Shown: piece by piece, positions 6,933-25,968 of the stretch
Layout: each line of letters opens with the position of its first letter
Position numbering within the stretch: position 1 is the first letter of the stretch
Assembly (NCBI GenBank): GCA_043821115.1
Contig: JBDRDD010000007.1
Span: forward strand, 6,276 to 70,275
Reading direction: 5' to 3'
Source: a bacterium
GTDB lineage: Bacteria; CAYTYR01; UBA6262; DAOVJB01
DNA length: 64,000 bases
Program-made: the position numbers and the translations under genes
The notes under the pieces: generated by a model
Told to the model about the DNA's origin: nothing
The model's input: only the letters and a program-made list of their open reading frames with translations
Database searches by the model: none

Positions 6933-8765
6933 ATGAAAAACAAAAAACTTATATCGTTAACAGTAATTTTAACTCTGATGGTGGTTTTATATCCTTTAGC
7001 AGGATACGCTGAGAAAGAAGTAGGTGGTGAACCTGGTTCTTTTTTGACCATGGCACAGGGTGCGAGGTCACTGGCGCTCGGAGGCGCTTTTGTAGGGCTT
7101 GCGGATGACGCTTCGGCCCTTTGGGCGAATCCAGCGGGATTACATGAGTTAAATAAGATGGAATTTGTATCGCTTTTTGCGCCGTTATGGGAGGATACTA
7201 ATTACAGTCTTCTGGGATACGCGCATCCCACGGTTAGCTGGGGAACGTTTGCAGCGGGAGTGACGCAGATATCAAGCAAGAATTTCAAGAGGAGACTCAC
7301 CGTAAGTGACAGCCCGACTAATTTTAATGTTGTGGAGCAGGCATATTTTCTCTCCTACGGCCAAGGGTTTCTTGAGAAGTTCTCAGCCGGGGCGAGTTTT
7401 AAGATGGTTAATCAGAAGATAGATACCTACAGTGATTCAAAGTTGGGCGTGGATATAGGCGCCATGTACAGGTCTTTTGATAAGAAGTTTTCGCTTGGTT
7501 TCAACGTGCAGAACGTAATGCCGCCGAAGATGAAATTAAGAGATGAATATGACACATATCCTATCATCGCCAAGATGGGCGGTGCGTATACTTTCAAACC
7601 TGAAAAATCCGAAAGTAACCGAAAGCTTACTTTATGCTTTGAGATGGATTATTCCGCTTTCACGGAATACTTAAAGACAGCAGCTGGTGTCGAGTACTGG
7701 ACAGGGCCTTTTCTGGCTCTGCGGCTAGGTAAGGACACCTATGACGATCTTACATTCGGTTTCGGCTTTGCGTACAATGACCTTCAGTTAGATTACGCGC
7801 TTGCCAATCATGAGCTTGGTCTCACCCATCGCTTTTCACTTACCTACCGGTTCGGGTACATAGGAGAATCAAAGTACAGTGAGAAGGCTATTAGCAAGAA
7901 GATCAAGGATCACGATATGAAGGGACAGATGCATTACGAAGCAGCTAAGTATTCCCAGGCTCTGGGTGAATGGGAAAAAGCTCTCATTTGGAACCCTGCT
8001 GATAAAGAAATACAGGCAAAGCTCGAAAGAGCCAATAACCAGCTCGAAGCCATAGTCAATAAGAAGCTTCTTGAGGATCGTATTGACAAGGCATATATTT
8101 CCTACGAAGAAGGAAATATGGTTGAATCAATGGAACACTGGCAGGAGGTCTCAAAGTTGGACCCGGCTAACGACAGGGCCAAGGAATATATTGAGAAAAT
8201 AAACAATGTGCTCGTAAAAGAGGAAAAGGAGATTTACCAGGAGCGTCAGAAAGAAAAAGAAATATTGATTATAGCAGGCCATATTGAGAAAGGTCAGGGG
8301 TTCTACAGGAAGAAGCAGTATGACAAGGCTATAAAAGAGTGGAAGAAAGTAATTGCCATACGTCCGGATCACCTGCAGGCTTCAAGCAAGATACGTCAGG
8401 CAGAGGATAAGATAAAGGATTCTATAAAATCACATCTTGATAATGGTATAGATTTCTATAATTCCGGGAAGACAGCCGATGCTATCCGTGAGTTAAAGCT
8501 TGTGCTGTCCTATGAAAAGGATAATGAGCAGGCTAAAGATTATCTGTCTAAGGCAGAGATTGTGGGAAAAGAGATTCGCAAAAAGGTAGACCCGCATCAA
8601 GTCAACCGGCTTTATTACCAGGCTGCTGATATGTATCTTAAGGGAAGCTACCAGGAATCTGTAGGGGTTCTGGACGAACTTTTAATTATGGATCCTGTCA
8701 ATGAAAACGCACTGAAGCTCATGGATAAAGTGCAGAGTGTTATGGAGGTGCTTGGAAAACGATGA
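6933..8765 (+). CDS. FadL/PorV-like outer-membrane beta-barrel fused to a C-terminal TPR-like helical domain
   Basis: Signal peptide; hatch-like motif GARSLALGGAFVGLADDASALWANPAGL; barrel-terminal strand THRFSLTYRF at about aa 300, then about 300 aa of helical repeats; starts 2 nt after argS stop. Confidence 0.8.
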   Translation: MKNKKLISLTVILTLMVVLYPLAGYAEKEVGGEPGSFLTMAQGARSLALGGAFVGLADDASALWANPAGLHELNKMEFVSLFAPLWEDTNYSLLGYAHPTVSWGTFAAGVTQISSKNFKRRLTVSDSPTNFNVVEQAYFLSYGQGFLEKFSAGASFKMVNQKIDTYSDSKLGVDIGAMYRSFDKKFSLGFNVQNVMPPKMKLRDEYDTYPIIAKMGGAYTFKPEKSESNRKLTLCFEMDYSAFTEYLKTAAGVEYWTGPFLALRLGKDTYDDLTFGFGFAYNDLQLDYALANHELGLTHRFSLTYRFGYIGESKYSEKAISKKIKDHDMKGQMHYEAAKYSQALGEWEKALIWNPADKEIQAKLERANNQLEAIVNKKLLEDRIDKAYISYEEGNMVESMEHWQEVSKLDPANDRAKEYIEKINNVLVKEEKEIYQERQKEKEILIIAGHIEKGQGFYRKKQYDKAIKEWKKVIAIRPDHLQASSKIRQAEDKIKDSIKSHLDNGIDFYNSGKTADAIRELKLVLSYEKDNEQAKDYLSKAEIVGKEIRKKVDPHQVNRLYYQAADMYLKGSYQESVGVLDELLIMDPVNENALKLMDKVQSVMEVLGKR

Positions 8766-10096
8766 AAAAAAAACTAATTATATCAATACTGGTCGTTACG
8801 TTAGGATGGGGTTTTGCTAATGCGGGCACATGGGAGGAATTCCGGACAGATTTCGCTCCCAACGCGAGGATAGGGCACGTGGCCATATACGATCCTAACT
8901 CGGATGCGATGGTCGTTATGGGAGAAGCGGGGGCTACGGATCAAAATATATACTCCCTTGACCTAGGCACGGGAGAATGGATAATAAAGAGCTCTTCGGA
9001 GGCTACCGTAGCCAGGGCGGACCATTCTATAGTTTATGACAGCAGCAGAAACAGGGCACTTGTTTTCGGGGGAAGCACGCTAGGAAGACAAGATGTCAAC
9101 GGCTATGAGAATGTAACGTATTACTGGAATTTTGCTACACCGGCATGGGGTGCTATAACTACAACAGGTACTGCTCCCATGGACAGGATAGACCATTCTG
9201 CGATTTATGACAGCGCTAATGATTGTATGATCGTATTTGGTGGCATCGGAGACGACGGTCTTTATAAAAATGATGTGTACAGTCTTGACCTGGCTACGGC
9301 AGTGTGGAGCCAAATAACGACAAGCGGTACCGCGCCCCAGTCAAGGTTCAAGCATTCGGCAATTTATGACTCAACTAATAACCGTATGCTGATGCTAGGA
9401 GGCAGTTCTGCTCTTAGTCTTGCCCATAGTGATCTGTGGGCACTTGACCTGAGGACGGATCCGGGGACTTTTGCGTGGAGTCAGCTTTCTACTACAGGAG
9501 ATACTTTTCCCGGACGCACGGGGCAATCAATAGTTTTTGACCCTGATACGGGAACACAAGGCTCTATTATAGTGTTCGGGGGAATGGATCCCCTTGCTAT
9601 AGAGTACAAAAATGATACCTACATTCTTGATATTGCCACTTTGACCTGGTCAAAAGTGGAGCCGGGGCTTGTTCCGCCTTCAAGACGTACGGATCATGTT
9701 GCAGTATACGATACTGATAACAACAGGATGTTTATTTTCGGTGGCTATAGCGGGACCAGTAACTTGAACAGTTGTTATACACTTGATATTACAGACCGTT
9801 GGCCGTCTGATTCCGATGACAGCGAGGTTTTTAATTACCCGAATCCATTCAAGGCCGGCGCGGAGAACACCAACATAACTTTTTACATGCAAAGCGCGGG
9901 GAAGGTTAATATCAAGATCTATACGCTGGTAGGGGGGCTGGTGAAGACATGGTCTCTAAACAGCAGCAGGGGAATAAATAAAGTCGTATGGGACGGTAAG
10001 AACGGGGAAGAAAAAGTAGTGGGCAATGGTGGCTACATATGCGTGGTTGAAAAGCCCAATTCTAATATAAAATTCAAAATAGCGGTTGCAAAATAG
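8762..10096 (+). CDS. Kelch-repeat beta-propeller surface protein with T9SS-type C-terminal sorting (Por_Secre_tail/FlgD-Ig-like) domain
   Basis: Signal peptide; repeated Kelch-like blades (ALVFGG, MIVFGG, MLMLGG, IIVFGG, MFIFGG); C-terminal tail FNYPNPF...VVWDGKN...GGYICVV...KFKIAVAK; ATGA overlap with upstream gene. Confidence 0.85.
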   Translation: MKKKLIISILVVTLGWGFANAGTWEEFRTDFAPNARIGHVAIYDPNSDAMVVMGEAGATDQNIYSLDLGTGEWIIKSSSEATVARADHSIVYDSSRNRALVFGGSTLGRQDVNGYENVTYYWNFATPAWGAITTTGTAPMDRIDHSAIYDSANDCMIVFGGIGDDGLYKNDVYSLDLATAVWSQITTSGTAPQSRFKHSAIYDSTNNRMLMLGGSSALSLAHSDLWALDLRTDPGTFAWSQLSTTGDTFPGRTGQSIVFDPDTGTQGSIIVFGGMDPLAIEYKNDTYILDIATLTWSKVEPGLVPPSRRTDHVAVYDTDNNRMFIFGGYSGTSNLNSCYTLDITDRWPSDSDDSEVFNYPNPFKAGAENTNITFYMQSAGKVNIKIYTLVGGLVKTWSLNSSRGINKVVWDGKNGEEKVVGNGGYICVVEKPNSNIKFKIAVAK

Positions 10097-10115: not shown

Positions 10116-11501
10116 ATGGCTACTCCAAAAGCGAAAATAAAACTCATAAGCAGGATCGCGTTGAAATTCAGTGCGATTGTCTGCTTTATTATCCTACTCA
10201 TAATGCTTCTTATGGCAAGCCTTATACTGCAGCAGACAAGGCAGTCATTGATAAAAGAGATGGAGATAAAAACAGAATTTTTTGCCCGCGATGTCAGGGA
10301 ATCCATGTTCCCCCAGCCGGATCCATTTCAGTTATTCTTCAGTGTTAACGAGATGATAAAAGACAAGGCTACGCTCTATGCCATCGTGCTTGACACAAAG
10401 GGAGAGATAGTTTCACATCACGACAGGGAGAGAATAGGCTCGCTTGATAAGAGTTCTGTGTCTCTTAGGGCGATGCAGAGCTCAGAGGTTCTTACCCAAC
10501 CCTACAAAAAAGGCTCGGAAGAATTATATGACATCTCTGTTCCTATCATGGTCGGAAAGGATCACAGGATAGGAACCGCACGCATAGGATTTTCCAAATC
10601 TTCCATAAATGCCGCGCTTGCAGAGAAAAGGAATAAGATTATAAGTATCACCATTGTCATGCTGGCGATTGGTGTGTTAGGGACAAGCATTGTGGTAACA
10701 CTAATGGTCAACCCGATAAATACGCTTGTTAAGGCCGCGCGCGGGATAGGTGAGGGAAAGCTGGACCAGGAGATAAATATAAAAGGTAAAGATGAGATAG
10801 GACAGCTTGCCAGGGCGTTTAGTGAAATGGTAAAAGGTCTTAAGGAAAGGGATTTTATACGAAATACCTTCGGGAAATACGTGACAAAGCAGGTTGCCGA
10901 AGCCATCCTTGAGGGGCAGCTCGAACTTGGAGGGGAGCGAAAAAAGGTTACGATACTCATGTCTGACATAAGGGGTTTTACAAAAATGAGCGAGAAACTT
11001 CCTCCCGAGGAAGTCGTGGACTTTCTAAACCTGTACTTTACGAAGATGGTGGATGTAATCAATAAGTACGAGGGAACTCTCGACAAATTCATAGGCGATG
11101 CGCTTCTTGCGGTGTTCGGCGCGCCTATAGCCCACATGGATGACGCAAGAAGAGCAGTATTTGCGGGAATAGAAATGAGCGAAGAGCTTGCGAAATTCAA
11201 TGCCGAGAGGCATAAGAACAATCAGGACCCTCTGGAGATAGGCATTGCCATTCATACAGGGGATGTTGTCGCTGGGAACATAGGTTCTGAGACCCGCATG
11301 GAGTATACAGTTATAGGAAATACCGTTAACCTTGCATCACGGGTCGAGAAGCTTAATAAGAAACTCGGTACCATGATGCTGATAACAGATGATACCTATC
11401 AAGAGGTAAAAAATGTCGTTGAAGTGAAGGATATAGAGCAGGTGAGTATAAGGGGTATAGAGAAACCCGTTAAGATATACGAGGTTGTGGGAAGAAAATA
11501 A
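10116..11501 (+). CDS. Membrane-bound class III adenylate/guanylate cyclase with HAMP domain
   Basis: N-terminal TM segments, HAMP-like linker (EIGQLARAFSEMVKGLKE), cyclase domain VTILMSDIRGFT...FIGDALLAVFGAP...IGIAIHTGDVVAGNIG. Confidence 0.9.
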   Translation: MATPKAKIKLISRIALKFSAIVCFIILLIMLLMASLILQQTRQSLIKEMEIKTEFFARDVRESMFPQPDPFQLFFSVNEMIKDKATLYAIVLDTKGEIVSHHDRERIGSLDKSSVSLRAMQSSEVLTQPYKKGSEELYDISVPIMVGKDHRIGTARIGFSKSSINAALAEKRNKIISITIVMLAIGVLGTSIVVTLMVNPINTLVKAARGIGEGKLDQEINIKGKDEIGQLARAFSEMVKGLKERDFIRNTFGKYVTKQVAEAILEGQLELGGERKKVTILMSDIRGFTKMSEKLPPEEVVDFLNLYFTKMVDVINKYEGTLDKFIGDALLAVFGAPIAHMDDARRAVFAGIEMSEELAKFNAERHKNNQDPLEIGIAIHTGDVVAGNIGSETRMEYTVIGNTVNLASRVEKLNKKLGTMMLITDDTYQEVKNVVEVKDIEQVSIRGIEKPVKIYEVVGRK

Positions 11502-19151: not shown

Positions 19152-20576
19152 TTGAAAGAACAGGCGAATATTCTTATAGTCGAACATGAAGCTTCGGTTT
19201 GTGATACCCTAAAAGGCATCCTCGCACAGGATGGCTATAATGTTGAATCGGCCACACTTGGCAAAGATGCGCTGCTACATCTGAAGGATTCTGTGTTTAA
19301 CATGGTGGTCTTGGATGTAAGTCTGCCTGATATAAACAGTCTTGACCTGCTCAGGGCTCTTAGACGGTCAAGTCCTTTTGTCTTTGTTCTTGCCACCGCG
19401 GGTGGCGGTGATTTCGAAAGGGTATTGGCTGCGGTAGAGGGAGGGGCATACAGCTATATAATGAAGCCCTGCAATAGCGACGAATTCAAGGTCATGGTAA
19501 AAAAGGGTATCGAAAGCCAGAAACAGATTCTGGTTAATCTGAAGTTACTTGAGAAGCTCAAAGAAAAGAAGGAGAAGACAGAGGATATACTATCTATATG
19601 CGAGGCGATGAGTTCGACCAATGATATGGGAACGCTTGTAAATCTTATTGTTAGCGAAATCTCGCGTTTTCTAGGTGCGAAAAAAGCATCTCTTATGCTG
19701 GTTGAGGAAGGGTTGCAGTATCTGGTTATAAAAGCTGCAAAAGGTATAGATGAGAAAATTGTAAAAGCCACCAAGATACGTATTGGTGATGGCATAGCGG
19801 GATGGATAGCACAGGAAGGTAAGCCATGGGTCGTCACGGATATTGAGCAGGACTCAAGGACCAGACAGCGTAACAAGTCCTCATATGAGACCAAATCATT
19901 CATGAGTATACCCATTAAGCTAGGTAGCAAGGTGAGGGGTGTTGTGAATATTTCCGACAGGGTAACTGAAGGGGCCTCCAGTTTCACGGAGGAGGACCTG
20001 CGCCTGAGTATGATAATAATGCGCCAGGCGGCAAGCGCTTTGCAGAACTGTTACCTTAACGAGAAGATAGCAAAGATTGACATAAAAGATAACATTACCG
20101 ATGCGTTCAACCAGAAATATCTTAATCAGAGACTGATAGAAGAGATAAGCAGGGTACACCGTTACAAGGGATGTCTTTCAGTCGTAATGCTCGATATAGA
20201 TTATTTCAAGCAGTACAATGACAGAGCCGGTTACATGATGGGCAATACGATAATAAAGGAGTTTTCTCAGATAATTAAGGAGAACATACGCGGTGTGGAC
20301 ACGATGGCGCGCTACGAAGGCGGATGTTTCGTGCTTATCCTGCCTCAAACCGATGTCAAAAGTGCATACGCGGTAGCGGAAAAGATAAGAAAGGTAATAA
20401 GCGAGTATCCTTTCCCGGAATCGCAGAAGCAGCCTGCGGGACGGGTGACCATAAGCGGGGGAATCGCGGAACTAGTAAAAGGCATGGACAAAGAAGAGCT
20501 TATTAGCAGGGCGTATCAGGCACTGTTGCAGGCTAAGGGGTCCGGTCAGAAAAATACTATTTCAATCCACACTTAA
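19152..20576 (+). CDS. Response regulator with REC-GAF-GGDEF architecture; GGDEF active-site motif degenerate (EGGCF), I-site RxxD retained
   Basis: REC (VLDVSLPD); GAF; GGDEF-fold with IRGVDTMARYEGGCFVLILPQTD instead of GG(D/E)EF. Confidence 0.9.
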   Translation: MKEQANILIVEHEASVCDTLKGILAQDGYNVESATLGKDALLHLKDSVFNMVVLDVSLPDINSLDLLRALRRSSPFVFVLATAGGGDFERVLAAVEGGAYSYIMKPCNSDEFKVMVKKGIESQKQILVNLKLLEKLKEKKEKTEDILSICEAMSSTNDMGTLVNLIVSEISRFLGAKKASLMLVEEGLQYLVIKAAKGIDEKIVKATKIRIGDGIAGWIAQEGKPWVVTDIEQDSRTRQRNKSSYETKSFMSIPIKLGSKVRGVVNISDRVTEGASSFTEEDLRLSMIIMRQAASALQNCYLNEKIAKIDIKDNITDAFNQKYLNQRLIEEISRVHRYKGCLSVVMLDIDYFKQYNDRAGYMMGNTIIKEFSQIIKENIRGVDTMARYEGGCFVLILPQTDVKSAYAVAEKIRKVISEYPFPESQKQPAGRVTISGGIAELVKGMDKEELISRAYQALLQAKGSGQKNTISIHT

Positions 20577-21808: not shown

Positions 21809-21843
21809 TTGACTTTATTTTATTTTTATGGTATACTTATAAT
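21809..21843 (+). promoter_or_regulatory. Sigma70-type promoter for the kinase gene cluster
   Basis: TTGACT - 17 nt - TATACT followed directly by TATAAT; 14-mer GGTATACTTATAAT identical to the one at 34646..34659. Confidence 0.5.
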
Positions 21844-21863: not shown

Positions 21864-21897
21864 TTATAATATAATGATATATGACATTATATTATAA
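21864..21897 (+). promoter_or_regulatory. Perfect 13-bp inverted repeat (candidate operator) just downstream of the promoter -10
   Basis: TTATAATATAATG - 8 nt (atatatga) - CATTATATTATAA. Confidence 0.45.
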
Positions 21898-21910
21898 AGG
21901 GGGATTCTGT

Positions 21911-23353
21911 ATGCTTTTAAAAAGAAAGTTGCTTTTAGCATTTTTAGGCATATCACTTTTTATTGTTCTTGTGACAAGTATAGTTCTCATCGATAGTGGC
22001 AAAACATTGAACAAGGCAATAGAGCTTACAAGCCAGTGGAACACGGCCCAGTTAAAAATCATAGAGGCTCAGGAAGCAGAGAAAAATTACGTCCTTGAAC
22101 GCAAAGGGCTTATTCCGCACCTGGGTGCCGGTTATGAAAAGGAATTCTTCACGTCTGTCGATAGTGCGAAGGATGCGTCAAGGCGTGACAAAGAAATAGT
22201 AATTGTAATAGAAATTTACTCGGATTATTTTACAGAGGTACTGGAGAAGGACACTCTTGATGAGAAAACAATAGAAACGCTGCGTGATAAGGGCAATGAG
22301 GCGAGAAAGATTGTCTCGGAAAAAGTTGTAAGCGTTCAGAATAAAGCTGGTGACACCCAGAAGAGGATTTCATCAATACTTCTCGTCGCCTTTTTTGTGG
22401 GTGCGGGAGTCTCTGTAGGTGGTGCTGTATTCTTTTCCAGGCTTATAGCTGAACCGCTTGTGAAACTGACACGAAGCGCGCGCAAGATAGCCGAAGGTGA
22501 TATATCTCAGGAAGTTCCTGTAATAAGCCAGGATGAAATAGGGGAGATAGCTGCTGTCGTAAACAAGCTCTCCCATGAACTGTTTAAGGCGAATAAAACC
22601 CTTGCCGACGGGAAGAAAGATCTCGAGCTACAGCTTGCCAGGCATACAAAGGAACTCCAGGATAAGCAATCTGATACGATAGAGTCAGAGAGAAAGGGTG
22701 CGGTCGAGCAGCTGGTCAACGCGATAGATACCGGGCTTACCATGAAACTCAGTAACCTCCGGGCGCTTGTATACCAGATGAGAGACAAAATTCCAAAAGA
22801 AGAGAAGGCCCTTTCGTTAGATATGACAAATGTTGTAAGAAGTGTTAACCAGGCTACCAGGGTAAGCAATAATATCCTAGCGTATTTTAAGCACCCTGTC
22901 CTGAATATAGAGTTTTCAGATGTAAACCGCGCCATCCAGGAAACCTTGATGATGAAGGAAAAAGAAGGTATATTCGATGACATCAAGGTAGTGCGCAGGC
23001 TGCAGGGGGGTATTCCCCAGATTCCTCTTGACGCGAGGTACATGAAAATTGCCCTTGATAACCTCTTTACCAATGCATACCAGGCAATGAGCGGGGCGGG
23101 GGAACTTATAGTTATGACAAGCGCCGTGCCCGGTGAAATAGAGATAAAGATCACGGATTCGGGAGTCGGCGTAAGCGATGACAACAGGGGTAAGATATTT
23201 ACACCGTTTTTTACCACCAGGGAAGACAACCTCGGGCTGGGTTTGGTAGTAGTTAGGGAGATAATAAAGCAGCATCGAGGCAACATAGCGATGCAGAGTA
23301 CGGTTGGAAAAGGAACCACTTTCATAATAAAGCTGCCGGTGGTTCCGAAATAA
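21911..23353 (+). CDS. Histidine-kinase-like sensor (TM, HAMP, HATPase_c) lacking a recognisable phospho-acceptor His in the H-box position
   Basis: Complete N, G1, F, G2 boxes (LDNLFTNAYQAM, DSGVGV, IFTPFFTT, GLGLVVV); H-box position reads VNAIDTGLTMKLSNL; start set to second ATG (21911), which has an RBS. Confidence 0.85.
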   Translation: MLLKRKLLLAFLGISLFIVLVTSIVLIDSGKTLNKAIELTSQWNTAQLKIIEAQEAEKNYVLERKGLIPHLGAGYEKEFFTSVDSAKDASRRDKEIVIVIEIYSDYFTEVLEKDTLDEKTIETLRDKGNEARKIVSEKVVSVQNKAGDTQKRISSILLVAFFVGAGVSVGGAVFFSRLIAEPLVKLTRSARKIAEGDISQEVPVISQDEIGEIAAVVNKLSHELFKANKTLADGKKDLELQLARHTKELQDKQSDTIESERKGAVEQLVNAIDTGLTMKLSNLRALVYQMRDKIPKEEKALSLDMTNVVRSVNQATRVSNNILAYFKHPVLNIEFSDVNRAIQETLMMKEKEGIFDDIKVVRRLQGGIPQIPLDARYMKIALDNLFTNAYQAMSGAGELIVMTSAVPGEIEIKITDSGVGVSDDNRGKIFTPFFTTREDNLGLGLVVVREIIKQHRGNIAMQSTVGKGTTFIIKLPVVPK

Positions 23354-23372: not shown

Positions 23373-24398
23373 ATGAAGATCAATATGAAGAAAAGAAGCA
23401 AACTGATAAATAAGCTTATAGGGTTATTCGTACTTGTCACTATCCCTATCCTTGCGATAAGCGTTAAACTGCTTATTGCCTCCAATAAATTTGACTTGGG
23501 ATCTGTGATATACATAGCGTACAGCGTCATTATAGCTGTAATAATCGCGGTGTTCTTTATTAACCACAGCATCATACGTCCGCTGGAGCAGCTCCATGAA
23601 GGATCTGAAAAGATAAAGGACGGTGATTTCGAGCACAGGCTTGTCGTGAGGTCAAATGACGAGATAGGGGACCTGACCAACTCGTTTAACGAGATGACGG
23701 ATGACATGAGGCGAAAGATAGTAGAGCTGGGTGAGTACAACACCACCCTCAAGGATAAACTTGAGAGGGCGAGCCTCGAGCTGAAGAAAAGCCAGGAGAA
23801 ACTCCTTCATCTTGAGAAAATCTCCACAATGAAGCAGATCGTTACATCCGTGACGCATGATCTGAAAGATCCTTTAACCGGTATAAAGACCGCCGCTTAT
23901 TACCTCGGTGAGAAGATCAGCAAGGATAACCCGGCGCTTACGAATATAATACGCGACATTGAAACAGAGATAGAGTACGCCGACAATATAGTGACCAACA
24001 TACTCTCTCTGGCGCGTCCTACAAATACGGGCCTTAAGCCCACAAATATAAATGAGGTAGTTGAGAAAGCCATTGCTCTTATAACCTCGCAGGCCATATT
24101 GCAGAAGATAAAGATTGTGAAGGTCCTTCATCCGTCTCTTCCCGCAATGCTTGCCGATGATACGCAGCTTAAACAGGTATTTATTAACTTGCTTCTTAAC
24201 GTCTTCCAGAGTATGCCACAGGGAGGGGAGCTTACCATAAGTACAGCAGAGAATGCAGGCAGGCTGGAGGTTAAGATAGTTGACTCAGGCAACAATGACA
24301 GGGTGTTCGAACCTATATTCAGCTCCAGGGACAATGACAAAAACAGAGACCTGGTCATTATGACCGAGGTAGCAAGAAACAGGGAATATGACGAATAA
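23373..24398 (+). CDS. Sensor histidine kinase with intact H-box but degenerate/truncated ATP-binding domain
   Basis: HAMP; H-box SVTHDLKDPLTGI; N-box NLLLNV and DSGNN present, but G2 box replaced (DKNRDLVIM) and protein ends about 30 aa early relative to its paralog. Confidence 0.85.
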   Translation: MKINMKKRSKLINKLIGLFVLVTIPILAISVKLLIASNKFDLGSVIYIAYSVIIAVIIAVFFINHSIIRPLEQLHEGSEKIKDGDFEHRLVVRSNDEIGDLTNSFNEMTDDMRRKIVELGEYNTTLKDKLERASLELKKSQEKLLHLEKISTMKQIVTSVTHDLKDPLTGIKTAAYYLGEKISKDNPALTNIIRDIETEIEYADNIVTNILSLARPTNTGLKPTNINEVVEKAIALITSQAILQKIKIVKVLHPSLPAMLADDTQLKQVFINLLLNVFQSMPQGGELTISTAENAGRLEVKIVDSGNNDRVFEPIFSSRDNDKNRDLVIMTEVARNREYDE

Positions 24399-25878
24399 CT
24401 TTACATTGCGAGACTTGGAACAAACAAAACGTTCTCAGGAGATGAGCGTTATGACTTCGGGTCCGATAAGTATATTAATCATTGATGATGAGCCCATCAT
24501 CAGAGATACCATGGCTTGTATCTTTACTGACGAAGGCTACCAGGTGGTGGTTGCTTCTACAGGTACGGAAGCAATAGCGCTTGGGAAAACCTCGTTTTTC
24601 AACGTGGCTATCATAGATTTAAAATTGCCGGACATGAACGGTCTTGAGGTCTTAGGCGCTATCAGGCAGTCAAATCCCCTGATATGCGCGCTTCTTATCA
24701 CCTCACATCCGACTACTAATACCCTTATAAGCGCGGTAAAAGCGGAAGCTTACGATTATATAAGAAAGCCTTTTGACATAAATCACATAAAGCTTGTCGT
24801 CAAGCGCGGCGTGGAACGCCAGCGCCTCTTCATAGAGAATGAAAAACTGCTTAAAAGTCTGACCGGGGAGAAGAGGAAGCTCGAGGCTATACTGCAGGTC
24901 AGTGAAATGATGAGCTCCATACTAAACCTTGATAAGCTGGTGAACTTTCTTGTTGTAAAATCAATGGACGTTCTTGAAGCCAAGCGCGGTTCCATAATGC
25001 TCCTTGATAGTAATGAGAGGCATTTGTTCATAAAAAGCGCCAAGGGCTTAAGCGAGCATATAGTAAAAGACACCAAGGTTAAGCTGGGAGAGAGGATCTC
25101 GGGATGGGTTGCCCAGGAGGGGAAACCGCTGCTCGTGGCAGATGTTGAAAAGGACCTGCGTCTTCAGAGGAAAAACAGACCCCAGTATATCACAAAATCA
25201 TTTTTGAGCGTTCCTCTTAAGCTTGAGGATAAGGTAATAGGAGTGATAAACCTTACGGATAAGCTCAAGAGTCCCAACGGTGTATTCACTGACGAGGACC
25301 TTAAATTCCTATCCATCATAGTCCAGCAGGGTGCGGTTGCCATAGAGAACGCGAAGTTATACAAGAAGGTGAGCTGGCTTGCGATTACTGACGCGTTAAC
25401 GGAGCTATTCAACCAGCGCTATTTCCAGGTGCGTCTGGCTGAGGAAATTAACCGTGCAAGGCGTTACGTTCGTCCGCTGTCGCTGATCATGCTTGATATA
25501 GATTATTTTAAGAACTACAATGATGTAAACGGCCATCTTAAGGGGAATATCCTGCTTCGCGGTATAGCGCAGATACTTAAGAACAGTGCCCGAGGCGTTG
25601 ATATACTCAGCCGTTACGGTGGTGAGGAATTTGTGGTGATACTGCCGGAAACAGATCTTGCTGACGCCCAGGCTGTAGCTGAGAAAATACGAAAGGCAGT
25701 GGAGGATACAGTGTTCGAGGGAGAGGAAAAGCAGCCCTTGGGAAAAATTACCATAAGCGGCGGCGTGGCTGTGTACCGTCAGAATATAACGGAAGACCAG
25801 TTTATAGGAAGGGCGGATGAAGCGCTCTACAGGGCTAAGGAACTGGGAAGAAATAAAATTTGTGTTTATGAGCAATAA
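24388..25878 (+). CDS. Response regulator diguanylate cyclase (REC-GAF-GGDEF, canonical GGEEF)
   Basis: REC (IIDLKLPDMNG); GAF; I-site RGVD and A-site SRYGGEEFVVILPETD; true start may be an internal Met near 24448. Confidence 0.9.
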   Translation: MTNNFTLRDLEQTKRSQEMSVMTSGPISILIIDDEPIIRDTMACIFTDEGYQVVVASTGTEAIALGKTSFFNVAIIDLKLPDMNGLEVLGAIRQSNPLICALLITSHPTTNTLISAVKAEAYDYIRKPFDINHIKLVVKRGVERQRLFIENEKLLKSLTGEKRKLEAILQVSEMMSSILNLDKLVNFLVVKSMDVLEAKRGSIMLLDSNERHLFIKSAKGLSEHIVKDTKVKLGERISGWVAQEGKPLLVADVEKDLRLQRKNRPQYITKSFLSVPLKLEDKVIGVINLTDKLKSPNGVFTDEDLKFLSIIVQQGAVAIENAKLYKKVSWLAITDALTELFNQRYFQVRLAEEINRARRYVRPLSLIMLDIDYFKNYNDVNGHLKGNILLRGIAQILKNSARGVDILSRYGGEEFVVILPETDLADAQAVAEKIRKAVEDTVFEGEEKQPLGKITISGGVAVYRQNITEDQFIGRADEALYRAKELGRNKICVYEQ

Positions 25879-25917
25879 AACTAATTGACTATAACACTAT
25901 AGATTGGTATTATATAT

Positions 25918-25943
25918 GATAAGTAAAGACAGCTTTACTTATC
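25918..25943 (+). promoter_or_regulatory. AT-rich perfect hairpin in the hisG upstream region (terminator or attenuator-like)
   Basis: gataagtaaag-acag-ctttacttatc (11-bp arms) followed by atatttttattt. Confidence 0.4.
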
Positions 25944-25968
25944 ATATTTTTATTTGAGGTGAGAAGAT

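Follow-up and report, generated by a model that had tools for sequence, protein, structure and literature searches.

Conversion of a diguanylate cyclase into a c-di-GMP receptor is an already known evolutionary route. The rule that a degenerate A-site combined with a retained RxxD marks an effector, on which the first-pass annotation of the gene described here relied, is documented for PopA, PelD, and SgmT (PMC10333796, PMC4877007). PopA of Caulobacter, a REC-REC-dGGDEF protein that evolved from a PleD-like cyclase, binds c-di-GMP via RxxD (PMC10333796), and PelD (TM-GAF-dGGDEF), which acts in Pel synthesis in Pseudomonas, takes up c-di-GMP at the RxxD of a dead GGDEF domain (PMC7288161, PMC10333796). 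[quoted passage not shown] WspR and PleD are REC-GGDEF proteins with cyclase activity that their product inhibits at the I-site, and Lcd1 is a cAMP-activated cyclase whose GAF domain senses cAMP (PMC8846402).

Here, we describe a probable further case of this route from an uncultured lineage, found in a window of 64,000 nucleotides (the whole stretch of DNA that was analyzed) and named the EGGCF protein after its A-site sequence. Like PopA, it is a response-regulator GGDEF protein that has kept RxxD alongside a degenerate A-site, and both come from an active REC-GGDEF cyclase lineage and show accelerated divergence. Both also lack an enzymatic output, so signaling must use protein contacts (PMC10333796). 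However, the middle domain is a second REC in PopA and a GAF in the EGGCF protein, which is of independent origin in a lineage apparently related to Omnitrophota and has an A-site of a different type, (E/Q)GGCF, in which the Cys never varies. Against the PleD-family equivalog model NF007135, it scores 164 bits, while the cutoff is 474. The GAF-dGGDEF tandem is shared with PelD, but PelD is membrane anchored, belongs to the pel operon, and is ancient and without close active relatives, whereas the EGGCF protein is soluble and begins with a REC, its gene has housekeeping neighbors, and a 43%-identical, active-looking paralog lies 4 kb away. With WspR and PleD it shares the GGDEF fold, and its I-site composition matches that of WspR (R, D, Lys at the PleD R390 position, and accessory Arg), but it lacks GG(D/E)EF and part of the receiver acid pocket and has a GAF domain between REC and GGDEF. 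SgmT, too, is a two-component protein, and it receives c-di-GMP through a degenerate GGDEF domain (PMC4877007). SgmT is a kinase, however, and the EGGCF protein is not; the true architectural analogue of SgmT in the window is a 1,080-aa kinase at 58779-62021. Lcd1 likewise has a GAF immediately upstream of its GGDEF domain but is an active cyclase without a REC.

The gene pair and its surroundings

The EGGCF gene (19152..20576, + strand) encodes a REC-GAF-degenerate GGDEF protein of 474 aa, as seen from the open reading frame, its translation, Pfam, and the deposited gene call P0001, which is identical to it. The start codon is TTG, and GAGGTGA stands ahead of it. Pfam finds all three domains that the first-pass annotation had named, with Response_reg at residues 7-116 (E 1e-18), GAF at 158-298 (E 4e-16), and GGDEF (PF00990, the alignment proposed there as a check) at 313-467 (E 5.7e-35; profile positions 4-160 of 161). 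A score of 128 bits against TIGR00254 (cutoff, 37.4) places the protein in the GGDEF superfamily. On the + strand, the REC domain, a probable pseudo-receiver, spans 19170..19499 (alignment to NtrC1/CheY structures), and the GAF domain spans 19623..20045 (Pfam and per-domain identities), with 5w10 as its closest solved relative (E 1.6e-14). The catalytically degenerate GGDEF domain follows at 20088..20552 (PF00990, TIGR00254, and alignment to WspR and PleD). The AlphaFold2 model is confident (mean pLDDT, 91.8), has long helices between REC and GAF and between GAF and GGDEF, and superposes on 3ign (TM 0.92) and WspR 3i5b (TM 0.88). As modeled, the fold is intact and near c-di-GMP-bound GGDEF structures.

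The GGEEF paralog, also REC-GAF-GGDEF by Pfam and alignments, is encoded by the open reading frame at 24388..25878 (+); the deposited call P0099 (24451..25878) starts 21 codons downstream of the open reading frame start at 24388. The two proteins have the same architecture and share 43% identity in an alignment that spans 468 residues and has a single gap. Named relatives of the GGEEF paralog, on which the phylum placement is based, are mostly Omnitrophota, together with Elusimicrobiota and the "PVC group." The gene order thiL–EGGCF gene–tsaE–tsaB–HK–HK–GGEEF paralog is constant, and the EGGCF and GGEEF genes co-occur 1:1 in all contigs that are long enough (the window, L001, and the P0006 contig). 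HK1 (21881..23353, +) has a HAMP domain and an intact ATP-binding domain but is without the phospho-acceptor His, its H-box reading NAIDTGL (nucleotides [nt] 22718-22750). HK2 (23373..24398, +) has a HAMP domain, the intact H-box SVTHDLKDPL (nt 23847-23876), and a truncated ATP-binding domain (G1 half lost, G2 lost). The conserved synteny with this split histidine-kinase pair was absent from the first-pass annotation, as were the pseudo-receiver, the relaxed GAF-GGDEF linker, and the Asn at the PleD D344 position described below.

The window additionally contains a GEMM-I-class riboswitch (34698-34782), with its best score to the variant model c-di-GMP-I-GGC, and a second RxxD-bearing degenerate GGDEF (61794-61835). 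Taken with the GGEEF paralog, these elements indicate that the organism uses c-di-GMP signaling chemistry. The literature searched yielded no ligand for the c-di-GMP-I-GGC variant.

Among 1.84 billion representatives, the EGGCF clade accounts for a single cluster at 50% identity, and it is defined by six sequences only, the window protein and five orthologues from independent assemblies at 58 to 71% identity. A genome-collection scan for orthologues returned only generic GGDEF relatives (≤34% identity), patterns such as DYFKQYND being unspecific, and it did not place the lineage taxonomically. An exact look-up of P0001 gave no match.

Catalytic and inhibitory sites of the GGDEF domains

The motif strings on which the first-pass annotation had based its comparison are exact for both proteins. 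In the EGGCF protein, IRGVDTMARYEGGCFVLILPQTD comprises RGVD (aa 380-383; nt 20289-20300) and EGGCF (aa 389-393; nt 20316-20330); in the paralog, ARGVDILSRYGGEEFVVILPETD (nt 25591-25632) comprises the I-site RGVD (nt 25591-25602) and GGEEF (nt 25618-25632). RGVD-TMARY-EGGCF aligns column for column, without gaps, to the paralog's RGVD-ILSRY-GGEEF. In PleD numbering, G368 is replaced by E, E370 by G, and E371 by C, while G369 and F372 are kept, and the changes at E370 and E371 thus remove the metal-binding and catalytic carboxylates. The degenerate motif that stands in place of GGEEF (20316..20330, +) is (E/Q)GGCF in 6/6 orthologues: four of the five from other assemblies have EGGCF and one has QGGCF, all with RGVD, and Cys392 is invariant across the clade. 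Both acids of GG(D/E)EF, which with A/SGDEF is the motif of active cyclases, are absent from all six sequences; GG[DE]EF is present in 116/120 relatives of the wider family. Because (E/Q)GGCF recurs together with RGVD in five independent assemblies, EGGCF is not an assembly or sequencing error, chance, or decay. By the secondary structure of the model, the stretch still forms the β2-β3 hairpin with G390-G391 at the turn. The best 150 representatives contained no EGGCF-type site elsewhere, and no mention of "EGGCF" or "QGGCF" was found in the GGDEF literature.

Other A-site residues are altered to different degrees. In GYMMGN (20229..20246, +; alignments), the PleD H340 position is Y, H, or C, and the position of PleD D344, which determines base selectivity and is described as essential (PMC7288161), is occupied by Asn365. 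This Asn is found in 6/6 EGGCF orthologues and also in the GGEEF paralog, where the corresponding stretch reads GHLKGN (nt 25531-25548). The PleD N335 position (N356) is Asn in 5/6 sequences and otherwise Ser, so that in the EGGCF protein the guanine-binding pair N335 plus D344 is broken at D344. The conserved RADEALYRAK helix has become RAYQALLQAK (20508..20537, +), in which the whole clade has Tyr for Asp and Leu or Met for Tyr. The metal and phosphate residues D348 (PleD D327), K462 (K442), and K467 (R446 position) are kept, as is the DxD (D348/D350); Lys is the commonest residue of the family at the R446 position (126-sequence alignment). The survival of D348, N356 (5/6), and K462 suggests that the A-site may not be wholly idle. 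Cyclase activity has very likely been lost, judging from these substitutions, and the first-pass reading of a lost catalytic GG(D/E)EF is borne out.

For the paralog, an I-site RxxD and a canonical GGEEF had been described; both motifs are there, but the Asn in place of the guanine-binding Asp344 of PleD makes the paralog less than fully canonical. With its REC residues DD/D/T/K intact, the paralog is a probable active cyclase and the likely source of the ligand, although the Asn shared by both paralogs leaves some doubt about what the partner cyclase produces. Nothing on Asn at this position was found in the literature, the Hypr papers covering Ser/Thr only. Membership in the Hypr GGDEF group (cGAMP synthases) was rejected: the D344 position is Asn rather than Ser/Thr, and the motifs are GGEEF in the paralog and EGGCF in the target.

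In contrast to the A-site, the I-site is unchanged in all six sequences. The primary I-site RGVD (20289..20300, +), in which R380 and D383 correspond to PleD R359 and D362, is invariant in the clade and kept in 119/120 members of the wider family. The accessory arginines R334 (PleD R313) and R337 (WspR R198), mapped by alignment to 20148..20165 (+), are invariant in all EGGCF orthologues and present in 118 to 119 of 120 family members. The PleD R390 position is K411, the same Lys as in WspR, with R413 two residues on, and WspR binds c-di-GMP at its I-site. The RxxD sits five residues before the A-site motif, as the receptor class requires. Since invariant columns make up 32% of the GGDEF domain (ten proteins, both lineages), the conservation of 4/4 I-site residues exceeds the background rate. 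Binding of c-di-GMP by the EGGCF protein is therefore likely, and the in silico evidence agrees with its earlier designation as a candidate c-di-GMP receptor with an intact I-site. Degenerate GGDEF domains that do not bind exist, as exemplified by TmoK, a kinase-linked GGDEF protein that neither produces nor binds c-di-GMP (PMC4877007).

Receiver domain, linker, and selection

The CheY D13 position is a metal ligand in receiver domains. In the EGGCF protein, CheY D12/D13 are E11/H12 (nt 19182-19187), and the orthologues have E-N, E-S, or A-N. The acidic pocket of phosphorylatable receivers is therefore incomplete, with H, N, or S at the D13 position of the clade versus Asp in 106/120 members of the wider family. 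The phospho-acceptor D55 and K105 are invariant in the clade. The CheY T87 position is Ala in three orthologues (Ala83 in the window protein) and Thr in three; it is Thr in 105/120 wider-family members. REC is also the least conserved and fastest-evolving domain of the EGGCF copy, with 38 to 52% identity between genomes versus 69 to 73% in the GGEEF copy, and the GAF-GGDEF linker is 43 to 64% identical among EGGCF copies versus 100% among GGEEF copies. Within the EGGCF copy, conservation is highest in GAF (67 to 72% between genomes). The REC is likely a pseudo-receiver, and the protein is likely independent of phosphorylation. Receiver phosphorylation is probably dispensable, as it is in PopA.

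The EGGCF copy evolves approximately twice as fast as its paralog, but it is under purifying selection. Saturation of dS among the available genomes precludes a dN/dS ratio, so we used dN relative to the neighbors, and the value for the EGGCF gene (0.29) is lower than those for the housekeeping genes thiL (0.40) and tsaB (0.48). The receiver acid pocket and the linker, on which regulated catalysis depends, are relaxed, whereas the I-site is not.

Possible roles of the EGGCF protein

On balance, we lean toward reading the EGGCF protein as a paralog of the local cyclase that has lost catalysis, probably acts independently of phosphorylation, and is kept as a c-di-GMP receptor. The gene would have arisen by lineage-specific duplication of the neighboring kinase-controlled REC-GAF-GGEEF cyclase. 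The HK1/HK2 pair would control the GGEEF paralog, which would make c-di-GMP, and (intercalated) c-di-GMP would bind the EGGCF I-site at R380, D383, R334, R337, and K411. Binding would shift the conformation or oligomeric state of the REC*-GAF-GGDEF* dimer, with output via protein-protein contact, as in PopA, and the GAF domain may supply a second small-molecule input. Neither an output domain nor a partner gene can be recognized, the flanks being the housekeeping genes thiL, tsaE, and tsaB, and the gene packing here may merely reflect a compact genome with all genes on one strand. The invariant Cys392 implies constraint beyond what the receptor model explains.

It is unlikely, though it deserves weight, that the protein is instead a pseudo-enzyme that heterodimerizes with or docks on the GGEEF cyclase as an inhibitor or scaffold. 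A GGDEF dimer requires two competent half-sites, so an EGGCF partner would play this part by its mere presence, irrespective of any c-di-GMP sensing of its own. The equal architecture and length at 43% identity, the 1:1 co-occurrence of the genes, and long helices of the type that forms dimer interfaces all fit such a role, and Asn, which is rare at the D344 position, occurs in both proteins, consistent with recent common origin or coevolution. Yet the paralogs diverge most in these linker helices (29% and 44% identity), and a linker fixed in GGEEF copies and variable in EGGCF copies is unexpected for a shared interface. Additionally, partnership by itself leaves the strict I-site conservation unexplained, and the two genes apparently belong to separate transcription units, although the evidence for this is weak.

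An improbable role is that of a nucleotide sensor, with a remnant A-site that binds GTP or some other nucleotide but does not turn it over and thereby signals nucleotide status; such behavior has been reported for the CC3396/PdeA GEDEF domain and has been proposed for FimX (PMC7288161, PMC8846402). The retained D348/D350, N356 (5/6), K462, and Lys at the R446 position would serve such binding, and the EGGCF motif itself is selected rather than drifting. However, the Mg-coordinating E370 is gone, base- and ribose-side residues begin to drift (N/S at the N335 position and Y/H/C at the H340 position), and, unlike in the known cases, the protein carries no enzymatic domain that the site could regulate. 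Quite improbable, too, is a reading in which the (E/Q)GGCF hairpin with its fixed Cys is not dead but a newly acquired site, such as a switch that responds to redox state or metal or a binding pocket for some other ligand. Together with the Asn in both paralogs and the nearby variant-model riboswitch, this could mean signaling by a nucleotide besides or instead of canonical c-di-GMP, with the EGGCF protein as the dedicated sensor.

That the REC acts as a phosphate sink or competitor, taking phosphate from HK1/HK2 and tuning phosphorylation of the GGEEF paralog, is highly improbable. The invariant Asp55 and Lys105 are compatible with it, as is the lineage's lack of a stand-alone REC gene found in the relatives' module, but H/N/S at the CheY D13 position, A/T at T87, and the rapid evolution of the domain argue otherwise. 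We find it hardly credible that the protein retains cyclase activity or works as some other nucleotidyl transferase through an unorthodox active site. Its public annotation is "diguanylate cyclase," and activity is possible with motifs off the consensus, such as AGDEF (PMC3974145). However, the off-consensus motifs of relatives (AGDEF, GGDEI, and similar) mostly keep the acidic pair, AGDEF having both acids, whereas the EGGCF protein is without both acids, the first Gly, and the Asp of RADEALY; moreover, the annotation rests on the domain-level TIGR00254 only, with all equivalog models below cutoff. A decaying, functionless copy, suggested by the roughly doubled evolutionary rate, is effectively refuted by an intact open reading frame of constant length in six assemblies, a dN under that of essential neighbors, a newly fixed motif, conserved synteny, and a good Shine-Dalgarno sequence before the start.

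If confirmed, the receptor reading would provide an independent, recent, and traceable conversion of a diguanylate cyclase into a c-di-GMP receptor, with the ancestor-like and derived copies adjoining in the same genomes, outside the Proteobacteria in which PopA and PelD have been studied. The contrast between the two copies separates what decayed with catalysis (the receiver acid pocket, the sensor-cyclase linker, and the catalytic acids) from what was retained (the I-site and the GAF domain). The public label "diguanylate cyclase" is probably mistaken for the EGGCF protein and its orthologues, which affects the counts of c-di-GMP-making versus c-di-GMP-sensing genes in uncultured lineages.

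The EGGCF protein and its GGEEF paralog

The ORF at 19152-20576 (+) encodes a product of 474 amino acids, with a TTG start codon and GAGGTGA just 5' of it. Its deposited counterpart, gene call P0001, has exactly this sequence and is publicly named "MAG: diguanylate cyclase [bacterium]." Response_reg (amino acids [aa] 7-116), GAF (aa 158-298), and GGDEF (aa 313-467) domains were matched by Pfam well over threshold. The paralog ORF at 24388-25878 shares this architecture, and the two proteins align over 468 residues at 43% identity with one gap. The deposited paralog (24451-25878, +) starts 21 codons inside this longest ORF; the same Met (MTSGP...) starts all of its orthologues and gives a protein of the length usual in the family (about 475 aa), and it avoids the 11-nt overlap with the kinase gene HK2 that the 24388 start entails. 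In the pairwise alignment, RGVD-TMARY-EGGCF lay over RGVD-ILSRY-GGEEF; the strings quoted previously were exact, and the claim of a degenerate active site (A-site) next to an intact I-site held.

GGDEF residues were mapped by alignment to the WspR and PleD structures and by a 126-sequence family alignment. In PleD numbering, the A-site changes are G368 to E, E370 to G, and E371 to C; H340 is replaced by Y and D344 by N, and in the RADEALY helix Asp has become Tyr and Tyr has become Leu. D327, N335, K442, and a Lys at the R446 position are retained, as are the I-site residues R359/D362 (RxxD), R313, and the equivalent of WspR R198, while the R390 position has Lys, likewise in WspR and most of the family. 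An apparent loss of R446 was a one-residue indel of the pairwise alignment and was withdrawn after the family alignment. In the receiver, placed by alignment to NtrC1 and CheY structures and by predicted secondary structure, D55 occupies the phospho-acceptor position and K105 that of CheY K109, with E11/H12 at D12/D13 and Ala83 at T87.

The AlphaFold2 model, built from a 102-sequence alignment, was confident (mean pLDDT, 91.8) and consisted of REC and GAF domains, each followed by a long helix (109-154 and 280-309, respectively), and a complete GGDEF fold. The beta-hairpin persisted at the A-site (384-389 and 392-398, with G390-G391 as the turn), and the GGDEF part superposed on the c-di-GMP-bound domains of 3ign (TM, 0.92) and WspR 3i5b (TM, 0.88). 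The protein passed domain-level GGDEF models only and failed all NCBIfam equivalogs, scoring 164 bits against a cutoff of 474 for the PleD family equivalog. The domain-level TIGR00254 was the sole model whose cutoff the EGGCF clade passed, which accounts for the name "diguanylate cyclase"; the orthologues P0002 to P0006 carry it too, and it is probably functionally wrong for the clade.

Conservation and regional constraint

A search of 5.8 billion proteins returned five orthologues with 58 to 71% identity. In all five, the Cys of the EGGCF motif (QGGCF in one) and RGVD were invariant, both accessory arginines were present, and the RADEALY Asp was replaced by Tyr; the CheY-D13 position was non-acidic (N, S, or H) and the T87 position was Ala or Thr. 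When 1.84 billion cluster representatives were scanned exhaustively with HMMER, the clade formed a single 50%-identity cluster, the nearest protein of the same architecture outside it shared only 40% identity, and an EGGCF-like A-site was absent from all of the best 150 matches. The dN/dS ratio was not computable because synonymous sites were saturated between the genomes. However, the dN of the EGGCF gene against its orthologue at the related locus L001 was 0.29, compared with 0.40 for ThiL, 0.48 for TsaB, and 0.51 for HK1 in the same genome pair, so the gene evolves under purifying selection. The altered motif is thus a fixed character, neither decay nor a sequencing error.

Each paralog lineage was compared region by region across the same three genomes. 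Between-genome identity in the EGGCF and GGEEF copies, respectively, was 38 to 52% and 69 to 73% in REC, 43 to 64% and 100% in the GAF-GGDEF linker, 61 to 64% and 82 to 84% in GGDEF, and 67 to 72% and 75 to 85% in GAF. Five of the 11 fixed GGDEF-domain differences between the lineages fell in A-site elements (E370, E371, the Asp/Glu of RADEALY, and R446 to K) and none in the I-site. Within the EGGCF protein, the A-site was replaced and then frozen, the I-site was untouched, and the receiver acid pocket was drifting, a sign of relaxed selection on the pocket. The parts for kinase-regulated catalysis were released and the product-binding site kept, and this is the main computational argument for a receptor.

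The locus, its kinases, and the messenger

The order aminotransferase, ThiL, EGGCF gene, TsaE, TsaB, HK1, HK2, GGEEF paralog, HisG, GltX was identical in the window, at L001, and on the P0006 contig; at L002, this order was conserved as far as the contig end. The EGGCF gene is tightly packed: 40 nt separate it from thiL upstream, and 3 nt from tsaE downstream. Nearly all credible genes in the window lie on the + strand, GC skew is positive throughout, and cumulative skew rises monotonically, consistent with a compact genome whose genes are strongly co-oriented with replication, so close gene spacing says little about functional operons in this region. A promoter-like site (21809-21837) and a strong terminator-like hairpin (25914-25947) flank HK1-HK2-paralog, a bracketing that is weak evidence because site counts were no higher than in shuffled controls.

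HK1 (21881-23353) has a HAMP domain and intact N, G1, F, and G2 boxes without the phospho-acceptor His, its H-box aligning as NAIDTGL (window) or NAIFLGF (L001) versus AISHDL in an intact homologue. HK2 (23373-24398) has a HAMP domain and an intact H-box (SVTHDLKDPL), but in its ATP-binding domain G1 is half lost and G2 and the C terminus are gone. This complementary degeneration, which recurs in L001 and, judged from its Pfam profile, on the P0006 contig, predicts that the two would form an obligate heterodimer with trans-phosphorylation; their distant relatives are intact kinases.

The paralog's GGEEF motif had been called canonical, but its D344 position has Asn, not Asp. The Asn lies in GHLKGN of the paralog (25531-25548) and GYMMGN of the EGGCF protein (20229-20246), and it is present in the paralog's three orthologues and all six EGGCF proteins; among 120 retrieved paralog-family proteins, the residue was Asp in 105 and Asn in only 14. 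Among close relatives, Asn occurred only in the GGEEF copies of genomes with the EGGCF gene. A change of D344 to Ser creates the cGAMP-making Hypr enzymes. Hypr GGDEF domains need both the GGDEF motif and Ser/Thr as the selectivity residue (PMC6456294), and this identity was rejected for the EGGCF protein, which lacks that combination. D344 is reported to be essential for cyclase activity (PMC7288161), but Asn also occurs in another GGEEF-bearing clade (P0204 to P0214) and is therefore probably compatible with activity. A literature search found no account of an effect of Asn at D344 on substrate choice or specificity; thus, the messenger is likely, though not certainly, c-di-GMP.

A large REC-GAF-GGDEF family includes the paralog. 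Most named members of that family are Omnitrophota MAGs, and others carry the labels Elusimicrobiota or "PVC group"; in distant members the cyclase gene is in a module with intact histidine kinase(s) and a stand-alone REC. The EGGCF clade was basal in a quick NJ tree, probably a long-branch effect. The simplest history would be duplication inside this narrow lineage after the D-to-N change, with one copy then evolving faster.

A candidate c-di-GMP receptor and its alternatives

The first-pass reading of the EGGCF protein as a candidate c-di-GMP receptor is supported as such, and orthologue conservation and the contrast within the protein strengthen it. The protein would be a catalytically inactive, phosphorylation-independent receptor for what the sister GGEEF cyclase makes, sensed via a WspR-like I-site, with output through protein-protein contact and the GAF domain as a possible second input. 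We lean slightly toward this combined model. Lack of cyclase activity is very likely; c-di-GMP binding at the I-site is fairly probable, and independence from phosphorylation is probable to much the same degree. The GGDEF domain of TmoK does not synthesize c-di-GMP and does not bind it (PMC4877007), so sequence cannot prove binding. A role as a pseudo-enzyme that partners or inhibits the GGEEF paralog would be compatible with c-di-GMP binding; it is unlikely, and the divergent linker helices weaken it. A nucleotide sensor using the remnant A-site is improbable, and a phosphate sink, in a receiver with D55 in place and a drifting acid pocket, slightly more so. Residual catalysis is very improbable, the acidic pair that defines active cyclases being absent, and a dying gene is hardly credible.

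The closest solved relative of the GAF domain was 5w10 (E value, 1.6e-14), which we take to be the cAMP-bound GAF domain of Leptospira Lcd1. The Lcd1 GAF senses cAMP (PMC8846402). The window also encodes an sCache-HAMP class III adenylate/guanylate cyclase (10116-11501, +), which might supply both paralogs' GAF domains with a cNMP ligand.

A 1,080-aa dCache-HAMP-PAS-PAS-HisKA-HATPase kinase (58779-62021, +), resembling SgmT in architecture, ends in a very degenerate GGDEF (28 bits). Its RRED-KSLDD-FPYIF (61794-61835) aligns to RGVD-ILSRY-GGEEF, with RxxD at I-site spacing and the A-site obliterated, making it a candidate second c-di-GMP-sensing GGDEF in the window. A GEMM-I-class riboswitch (34698-34782, +) fitted best the variant model c-di-GMP-I-GGC (RF03167; 65.1 bits, gathering score 59), with mismatches to the variant consensus at some conserved positions; directly downstream are a TPR protein (34832-35377) and a 1,302-aa GH113-like protein (35400-39308). 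Several large secreted-type proteins at 6933-10096, 31265-34612, and 47395-50506 have NHL and Kelch beta-propellers, FlgD-Ig, and Por_Secre_tail/CHU_C sorting domains. After each come PorV/PorP/UPF0164-like outer-membrane proteins, an arrangement suggestive of cargo-and-shuttle pairs for type IX-like secretion. At 39680-45050 (+) lies a complete rRNA operon (16S, two tRNAs, 23S, and 5S), a potential marker for phylogenetic placement.

In its sequence, the EGGCF protein agrees at every point with the class of receptors with a degenerate GGDEF domain (dGGDEF). Documented cases matching this reading are PopA (REC-REC-dGGDEF), which arose from the PleD lineage and diverged at an accelerated rate, PelD (TM-GAF-dGGDEF), and SgmT (PMC10333796, PMC7288161, PMC4877007). 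With a probable pseudo-receiver, GAF, and dGGDEF, the EGGCF protein mixes features of PopA and PelD, and the principle is the same. As a receptor candidate, it extends a known evolutionary route from cyclase to receptor to an uncultured lineage.
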